UHGV virus genome: UHGV-0286550
Length of the DNA stretch: 21,407 nucleotides
Origin: a virus
Direction: 5' to 3' (one strand)
The notes beneath the pieces are model-generated. The model was given only the letters and a program-made list of their open reading frames with translations. It ran no database searches and was not told the DNA's origin. A program made the translations under genes and the position numbers. This document shows, piece by piece, positions 1,705-1,886 of this stretch. Within the stretch, counting starts at the first letter, position 1, and every line of letters begins with the position of its first letter.

Positions 1705-1837
1705 TTTTTCTTTCCTCTATAACTAGTTGATTTTAATTGCAAAAACCACATAAAGACCAAAATCAAAAAGAAAATACAAAGAAAGGGCTATTTTTGCTTT
1801 ACATGGGCTACATATGGATCAATACTTGTATCCGAAG

Positions 1838-1859
1838 GGATAACACGGCGGTGTTATCC
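1838..1859. promoter_or_regulatory. Perfect inverted repeat GGATAACAC-GGCG-GTGTTATCC with a third GGATAA half-site at 1864-1869; candidate Ner/repressor operator
   Basis: Seen in sequence, 28 bp upstream of the ner ATG in the divergent c-ner control region. A-tract-rich DNA (1741-1800) and a possible sigma70 promoter (TTTACA 1798-1803, 17-bp spacer, AATACT 1821-1826) lie just upstream. Confidence 0.5.
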
Positions 1860-1886
1860 GCACGGATAATTTTTAAGGGTAACCTA

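Follow-up and report, generated by a model that had tools for sequence, protein, structure and literature searches.

The palindrome upstream of ner in a Mu-like Escherichia coli prophage is probably the core of a Ner operator array

The DNA considered here is a stretch of 21,407 nucleotides (UHGV virus genome UHGV-0286550; "the window" denotes this stretch at its full length), most of which, ~20.7 kb, is the left part of a transposable, Mu-like prophage of Escherichia coli. Close to the left end of the prophage, the leftward open reading frame of a repressor and the rightward gene ner are separated by a spacer of 182 bp (1705-1886), and ner is followed by genes for a Mu-type transposase and a MuB-like ATPase. 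An earlier note had recognized in this arrangement the control region between the divergent repressor and ner genes of a Mu-like element, and the protein families bear this out: Ner belongs to PF13693 (HTH_35; 9e-26) and to phrog_769, is 43% identical to Ner of Mu (E = 3e-19), and has matches among solved structures to Ner of Mu (1neq) and to EnrR (7f9h), and the transposase (PF02316) and the ATPase lie beside it. The same note had drawn attention to a perfect palindrome with 9-bp arms ending 28 bp before the ner start codon, with a third half-site beyond it, and both are exactly as described. Our reading, which we hold with good confidence, is that this palindrome is the core of an operator array for Ner at the early promoter of the prophage.

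Only one strong σ70-like site is present between 1000 and 2200. This candidate early promoter, Pe, scored 10.3 bits in a weight-matrix scan, against a 95th-percentile background of 9.1. Its −10 element is kept in nearly all relatives, and the context of its −35 element, GCTTTACA, is common to Pe of the window and Pe of Mu. The predicted start of transcription is at about 1833-1835. A GATC (Dam) site lies directly upstream of the −10 element (1817-1820; GGATCAATACT) and is found in nearly all relatives, whichever type of repressor or Ner they encode; it is conceivable that Pe is sensitive to methylation.

Three base pairs past the −10 element begins an array of four short half-sites, H1 to H4 (Table 1), which covers approximately −5 to +36 relative to the predicted start and ends 16 bp before ner. 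The arms of the palindrome are H2 and H3, the third half-site of the earlier note is H4, and H1, on the promoter side, had been overlooked. The four alternate in orientation and define three dyad centers (1835.5, 1848.5, and 1861.5) spaced 13 bp apart, each with a variable 4-nt core. A repeat finder returned the whole as an extended inverted repeat of 40 bp (1829-1868), with 18-nt arms (1829-1846 and 1851-1868) that are 83% complementary. Viewed in another way, the array contains two perfect copies of the unit TATCC-N4-GGATA, at 1829 and 1855; 0.38 matches with up to one mismatch would be expected in the whole window. The perfection of the palindrome in this prophage arises from the two inner half-sites together with their symmetric flanks, CAC and GTG. 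A further copy of the unit with one mismatch (TTTCCGCAGGGATA) is found at 154-167, in the host flank outside the prophage, and is probably there by chance.

A stretch of 21 kb should contain about one perfect 9+9 palindrome by chance, and H3 with its neighbors (TTATCCGCA) has eight of nine matches to what we take to be the consensus of the DnaA box, so that the palindrome might be read as a fortuitous feature or as a site for a host factor such as DnaA (TTATCCACA-like). Within the 182-bp spacer, however, the probability of chance occurrence is 0.002-0.02: Markov simulations of the spacer gave a perfect 9+9 repeat with a spacer of up to 10 in 110 of 5000 cases (2.2%), and an extended repeat with 15 of 18 positions paired in 2 of 1000 (0.2%). 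Furthermore, both the position and the sequence of the half-sites are conserved in dozens of prophages. We consider an accidental or host-factor origin to be highly improbable. The DnaA box itself was rejected because positions 7-9 of TTATCCGCA vary among relatives (GCA, GCG, GTC, and GTA).

Comparison of 30 distinct related arrays (individual loci are designated below by L numbers) shows conserved columns reading TATC / GATAAC / TTATC / GATAAC, between which the 4-nt cores vary. The best-conserved palindrome is the ner-proximal unit, in which 6-9 of 9 pairs are symmetric whatever the type of Ner; in most type 1 relatives it reads GTTATCCG-CA-CGGATAAC, and both 8-bp arms are perfect. Symmetry is weaker in the promoter-proximal unit (4-6 of 9 pairs), and the middle dyad, which is the palindrome first noticed (H2 plus H3), retains 8-10 of 11 pairs in types 1, 3, and 4. 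In the type 3 family the middle register is occupied by ACCC-N4-GGAT, which nearly repeats ATCC-N4-GGAT for a third time, and in type 2 it opens with a third TATCC. These features suggest that the array consists of two or three tandem sites for Ner dimers. An arrangement of two outer dimers with an optional third has, in our estimation, an even chance of being correct.

The palindrome might instead be the operator of the lysogenic CI-type repressor, a dimer of which would shut off Pe. CI-type helix-turn-helix (HTH) repressors usually bind dyad-symmetric sites, and the overlap of the array with the predicted Pe start is a suitable position for a repressor. Natural exchange between prophages speaks to this point. 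In prophages of the STEC316 type (L004, L006, L012, L013, L015, and L019), the N-terminal 90 residues of the repressor are 43-47% identical to those of the window and the left part of the intergenic region differs, but Ner is identical and the half-site array is as in the window, with at most single-base changes outside the half-site cores. A sliding comparison in 30-bp bins delimits the region of difference as an exchangeable "immunity cassette" of 485 bp, within which identity to the STEC316 type is 30-67%; in the flanks it is 87-100% in most bins, with the greater part at 97-100%, and 80% in two. The C-terminal 90 residues of the repressor are 70-90% identical across the two cassette classes. 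The right breakpoint falls inside the Pe spacer, such that the exchanged cassette stops before the array and the palindromes lie outside it. Exactly the same array is thus found with two classes of repressor N-terminal domain, at least 89% or ~45% identical to that of the window.

The converse case is provided by L010, which is closely similar to the window over the repressor HTH (1487-1576; 83-87% DNA identity) and the Pe core (1787-1846; 80-93%) and yet has other boxes, TATCAA-AC-TTGATAAC...GTTATCAA-AT-TTCGTAAC, with a Ner that is 49% identical to that of the window. L022 (Ner 91% identical) keeps all four half-sites and has changed all three 4-nt cores, and L037 (86% identical) has exact inner arms and weakened outer half-sites. 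The most telling cases are two, both standing behind the same promoter, that connect the series to known phages. L378 and L381 have the GATCAATACT −10 element of the window, a Ner that is 64-65% identical to Mu Ner and carries the recognition helix of Mu (TTLANALER-WPKGE), and Mu-type boxes (TTAACTAAGT); L376 has a Ner 81% identical to that of D108 and boxes of the D108 type (GAGCTAC-N8-GTAGCT). These anchors constitute the strongest evidence that the palindrome belongs to Ner. Across seven types, the Mu-type and D108-type anchors included, the type of box follows the recognition helix of Ner rather than the repressor, and we regard the assignment of the palindrome to the repressor as very unlikely. 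The sample of Ner types was widened by scanning the genome and viral contigs with a 15-base pattern, TGGATCAATACT-N1-3-ATC; the matches were mostly due to chance, but among those listed were five relevant viral loci, and the scan of viral contigs added the Ner types of L233 and L248. A simple code linking residues to bases (such as Lys43/Asp40 with GG/CC) was weighed and abandoned, as the support for it comes down to what is essentially a single independent change, in type 4, and L248 partly contradicts it.

The palindrome could also act mainly at the level of RNA, as a 5' stem-loop of the early transcript that stabilizes the mRNA or modulates translation of ner, with any binding of protein to the DNA being secondary. 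A transcript starting near 1834 would carry a 9-bp 5'-terminal stem with a 4-nt loop, for which the minimum free energy is −18 kcal/mol (z = −2.8; 1 of 200 shuffles was as good), and in Ner types 1, 1b, and 1c the loop, i.e. the 4-nt core, varies and the stem is kept. Against this, types 2 and 5 have a disrupted stem, with 6 of 11 positions symmetric, and what is conserved is a set of specific sequences (TATC and GATAAC), repeated four-fold. H1 would not be transcribed, as it is located at the predicted start or upstream of it, Rfam gave no match in 1000-2300 at E values up to 1, and DNA sites equivalent to the array are present in Mu and D108, in the region to which Ner binding is annotated. 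A primarily RNA-based function therefore seems unlikely to us on balance. The roles of hairpin and DNA operator are not mutually exclusive, and the hairpin may possibly have an additional role.

Several observations weigh against the assignment of the array to Ner or complicate it. The co-segregation of array and ner could in part reflect their physical linkage, over 16 bp, and not function. L248, which has a very divergent Ner, still has TATCC/GGATAAC boxes, and the protein-DNA code is therefore not simple. The middle dyad is weak in types 2 and 5 (6 of 11 pairs), and the pairing of half-sites is ambiguous; type 5 has repeats 24 bp apart as opposed to 26 bp, with the N4 spacing within units being kept. 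Finally, any palindrome located past a transcription start also gives rise to an RNA hairpin.

With these reservations, operation of the array by Ner can be envisaged as follows, the binding of Ner, its stoichiometry, and its mode of repression being predictions. Pe, a σ70 promoter, would drive rightward early transcription of ner, the genes of transposase A and of B, and onward. Directly after its −10 element, four Ner recognition elements with the consensus (G)GATAAC / GTTATC(C) would occupy ~40 bp (1829-1870), the outer units, TATCC-N4-GGATA, corresponding to the family consensus. Ner made from the early transcript would bind to these elements, probably with two or three small dimers spaced at 13-bp intervals, and the bound protein would block either the formation of the open complex at Pe or escape from the promoter. 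The outcome would be a Cro-like negative feedback on the expression of the early and transposition genes. The CI-type repressor would act elsewhere, most probably at the Pe −35 element and spacer and the DNA upstream (1705-1811), because it is this DNA that is exchanged along with the repressor's DNA-binding domain.

How does this compare with Ner sites elsewhere in the family? For Mu and D108, Ner binding was taken from the GenBank annotation, the sequences, and general knowledge. In Mu (AF083977), the Pe feature annotated as "part of Ner binding region" ends at 1028 and the ner ATG is at 1099; an inverted repeat, AGCTAGCTAAGT-TTTTAC-ACTTAGTTAAAT (1023-1040 / 1047-1064), extends across this end/start of Pe. 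Its location, immediately after the −10 element and start of Pe and before ner, is the same as in the window, and the composite repeat is of similar size (18-nt arms, 78% complementary with a 6-nt gap in Mu, compared with 18 nt, 83%, and a 4-nt gap in the window). The sequences of the boxes are unrelated (...CTAAGT/ACTTAG... in Mu, TATCC/GGATAAC here), and in place of the two 12-bp boxes of Mu, 18 bp apart, there are four short half-sites in the window, set in a 13-bp register. The D108 site is a perfect 11-bp repeat, CCGTGAGCTAC-N8-GTAGCTCACGG, with 24 bp between its end and ner. The likeness to the window, in which a perfect inverted repeat also stands shortly before the ner start codon, extends to the pattern of variation, with relatives keeping the arms and changing the spacer (L376); the sequence of the arms (CCGTGAGCTAC), their length, and the spacer are different, and we saw no additional flanking half-sites in D108. 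The repressor promoter of Mu is reportedly also under the control of Ner. The window differs in this respect: the search for a leftward promoter next to the array gave no convincing candidate, the best minus-strand site scoring within background and overlapping an IHF-like site.

The earlier note had contrasted the palindromic operator with the repressor and Ner sites of Mu and suggested a distinct pairing of regulator and operator. The contrast does not hold for the Ner sites, as both the Ner-binding region of Mu and the site of D108 are inverted repeats, and the palindrome is therefore a site typical of the family and not evidence of a new pairing. What survives of the suggestion is that the repressor belongs to a different family from the repressor of Mu, c; the palindrome itself segregates with ner.

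A structural parallel is EnrR, a Ner-family protein of Edwardsiella that was crystallized as a tight dimer on ATATC-TATA-GATAT (CGAAATATC-TATA-GATATTTCG; PDB 7f9h/7f9i) and whose affinity drops with a longer spacer (PMC9023278). It belongs to the same protein family as the Ner of the window (E = 6e-17), it autoregulates its own gene, and its short, AT-rich palindrome resembles the 14-bp TATCC-N4-GGATA unit in size and shape. It is, however, a chromosomal, nucleoid-associated global regulator that counteracts H-NS and not a regulator of a phage early promoter. Furthermore, the base-contacting Arg47 of EnrR aligns with Asp40 of the window Ner, and recognition must therefore differ in detail.

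Table 1. Features of the repressor-ner region and its surroundings (positions in the window; Pe, candidate early promoter)
Feature	Position	Strand	Description
Candidate end-binding sites	743-753, 817-827, 868-878		three direct copies of ATTCTGGGCG(G/C), just inside the left end
Repressor gene	1057-1704	−	215 aa; ATG at 1704; PF07022; phrog_3037 "transcriptional repressor"; protein WP_032300917.1
Exchangeable immunity cassette	1327-1811		DNA-binding, N-terminal half of the repressor with the left 107 bp of intergenic DNA, among them the Pe −35
Left motif cluster (TTTCTTT/AAAGAAA)	1655-1713		1656-1662 (KES codons), 1676-1682 (FSF codons), 1707-1713 (repressor ribosome-binding site)
IHF site	1720-1732	−	perfect consensus (AATCAACTAGTTA = WATCAANNNNTTR); 16 bp away from the start codon of the repressor gene
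Weak candidate leftward (repressor) promoter	1730-1760	−	−35 TTGGTC/TGGTCT (1760-1754); −10 TAAAAT (1735-1730)
A-rich tract	1741-1790	+	64% A, many A3-A5 runs; between the candidate leftward promoter and Pe
Pe candidate	1798-1826	+	−35 TTTACA (1798-1803); 17-bp spacer; −10 AATACT (1821-1826)
H1	1829-1833		TATCC; fourth half-site
H2	1838-1846		GGATAACAC; left arm of the perfect palindrome
H3	1851-1859		GTGTTATCC; right arm, exact complement of H2; 4-nt spacer GGCG
H4	1864-1870		GGATAAT; third half-site
Shine-Dalgarno-like sequence	1875-1879	+	AAGGG; 7 nt upstream of the ner ATG
ner	1887-2123	+	78 aa; ATG at 1887; protein identical to WP_000989761.1
Mu-type transposase gene	2123-4165		matches to PF02316 (N-terminal domain), rve, and Mu-transpos_C
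MuB-like AAA+ protein (ATPase) gene	4184-5077		

The repressor passes the PF07022 cut-off (28.4 bits compared with 22, over residues 20-80), as do its relatives in L004 and L010, and is accordingly of the CI type. It has no similarity to Mu c (BLASTP E = 2.1), and the two differ in their domains, Mu c matching PF02316 at 5e-54, a domain that is also found at the N terminus of MuA, and the window repressor matching PF07022 only and not PF02316. The operators of the repressor probably lie within 1705-1811, to the left of 1812, a placement suggested by the co-transfer of that DNA with the DNA-binding half of the repressor; the best candidate would be the island of the Pe core that is common to L010 (1787-1826). 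Operators of the Mu type were ruled out, as the consensus CTTTTYNR (CTTTTPyNPu) of the Mu repressor occurs once in 1650-1830, compared with six copies in Mu 860-1030. A related Mu-like repressor-ner remnant is carried by an mcr-10 plasmid, pMCR10_2641_2 (L009, locus 496-1538), where it is truncated by IS26 directly after ner. The left intergenic region of this remnant contains an 18-bp perfect palindrome, TTTTCTCA-CA-TGAGAAAA, with related copies, and these are likely to be the operators of that class of repressor.

The left half of the spacer contains an A-rich tract in which the earlier note had seen phased A-tracts. The richness in A is real, but the phasing is not: AA/TT periodicity at 10-11 bp in the tract is not above that of shuffled sequences (p 0.13-0.82), and the dominant spacing of A-runs is ~6 bp (centers at 1761, 1767, 1773, 1779, and 1783). 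Bending by phased A-tracts was discarded on the strength of this periodicity test. The tract may instead serve as an UP-like element, as a site for the repressor, or as a site for the transposase, i.e. as part of an enhancer. It holds two copies of the motif AAAGAAA (1767-1773 and 1778-1784), and five of the ten copies of AAAGAAA/TTTCTTT in the whole window fall in 1655-1785. To the left of the tract is a perfect consensus site for integration host factor (IHF), 994-1006 bp from the left end of the prophage.

This layout is widely kept. The IHF consensus is present with at most one mismatch in all nine of the related loci compared, and in all nine AAAGAAA/TTTCTTT motifs stand on both sides of it, three of the copies in the window overlapping codons or the ribosome-binding site. 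The repressor classes that were compared have the same order, namely TTTCTTT (KES codons), AAAGAAA (FSF codons), TTTCTTT (ribosome-binding site), IHF site, AAAGAAA (one or two copies), and Pe −35 element, with the FSF-codon copy being degenerate in one locus, L004; the positions of the left cluster are kept in nearly all of these classes. Two cassette classes differ by an 11-bp indel that falls after the last motif and before the −35 element. FSF and KES, encoded at approximately codons 8-17 of the repressor (1655-1684), are the sole peptide motifs kept in N termini that have otherwise diverged. The sequences that encode them, TTTTCTTTT and AAAGAAAG, form a perfect 8-bp inverted repeat (1656-1663 / 1675-1682). 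By analogy with O1 of Mu, their conservation might stem from selection at the level of the DNA, for a binding site within the coding region.

The enhancer of Mu consists of two clusters of transposase sites that are split by an IHF site, lies ~1 kb from the left end, and overlaps the operators O1-O3 (PMC3145075). In the Mu sequence, the IHF site TATCAACGCGTTA is at 947-959, 18 bp from the ATG of c (929). The window shares with O1-IHF-O2-O3 of Mu the divergent repressor and ner genes ~1 kb from the left end, an IHF site near the repressor start codon, short repeated motifs on both sides of it, with one cluster in the first codons of the repressor, and a transposase that retains the PF02316 N-terminal domain. 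The difference lies in the repressor, which is of the PF07022 family here and of the PF02316 family in Mu; as its domain is not homologous, the arrangement of Mu, in which repressor and transposase vie for sites by means of homologous domains, cannot operate here. By analogy, a role of the region as an enhancer, which the earlier note had mentioned for Mu, is plausible, and the left motif cluster is a possible analogue of the O1/enhancer sites. That the motifs and the IHF site together form a Mu-like enhancer layout is a tentative proposal.

A broader and similarly speculative interpretation is that this E. coli family has split the functions of operator and enhancer, which Mu combines, into an AAAGAAA-IHF enhancer, immunity conferred by a CI-type cassette, and a separate Ner array. 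The AAAGAAA/TTTCTTT array would then be the enhancer for the transposase, with its PF02316 domain; the cluster within the first 17 codons of the repressor may be what fixes FSF and KES; and Ner would have its own array, of two or three dyads following one another every 13 bp.

With regard to the element as a whole, bases 1000-2200 are 100% identical to strain 54214, in which the element adjoins caiF. Close relatives are inserted in eutC (E2348/69), near agaF (STEC316), and in ycgB (M8), mscM, fliH, csiR, and other loci, and this diversity of insertion sites indicates that the element transposes. Alignment of four insertions places the left end of the prophage at 727 (5'-TGTGGGGTAG...), and window positions 1-726 are host DNA, corresponding to the caiF side in strain 54214. 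Three direct repeats just inside the left end are probably binding sites at which the transposase recognizes the end, analogous to L1-L3. Directly past the stop codon of the repressor is a perfect 8-bp inverted repeat, ACGCCTAC-N6-GTAGGCGT (1035-1056), a possible terminator of the leftward transcript, though one without a clear T-run after it on that strand. Four more long perfect inverted repeats, with arms of 10-13 nt, are found in the body of the prophage (9335-9365, 10579-10606, 16351-16374, and 18895-18921), and are possibly terminators or other regulatory sites. A search of a phage collection with 1000-2200 as the query found no close relative, two Yersinia Mu-like phages matching in part only (830-1188), and in the literature on Ner operators and Ner-like proteins that we searched we did not find a description of this group of E. 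coli prophages.

These considerations assign a probable function to a previously unannotated regulatory element that is present in dozens of E. coli genomes, including that of the enteropathogenic strain E2348/69. They point to a new class of Ner specificity, characterized by (G)GATAAC boxes in TATCC-N4-GGATA units, and to a natural experiment on the code by which Ner and EnrR proteins recognize DNA, in which seven types of helix and box stand behind one conserved promoter. Immunity, for its part, appears to be exchanged as a compact cassette that is bounded within the spacer of the early promoter. Because the repressor of these prophages is not homologous to the N terminus of the transposase, the competition between repressor and transposase at a shared operator/enhancer that is familiar from Mu cannot apply unchanged. 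The picture drawn from Mu and D108 is thereby extended, and current understanding is not overturned.

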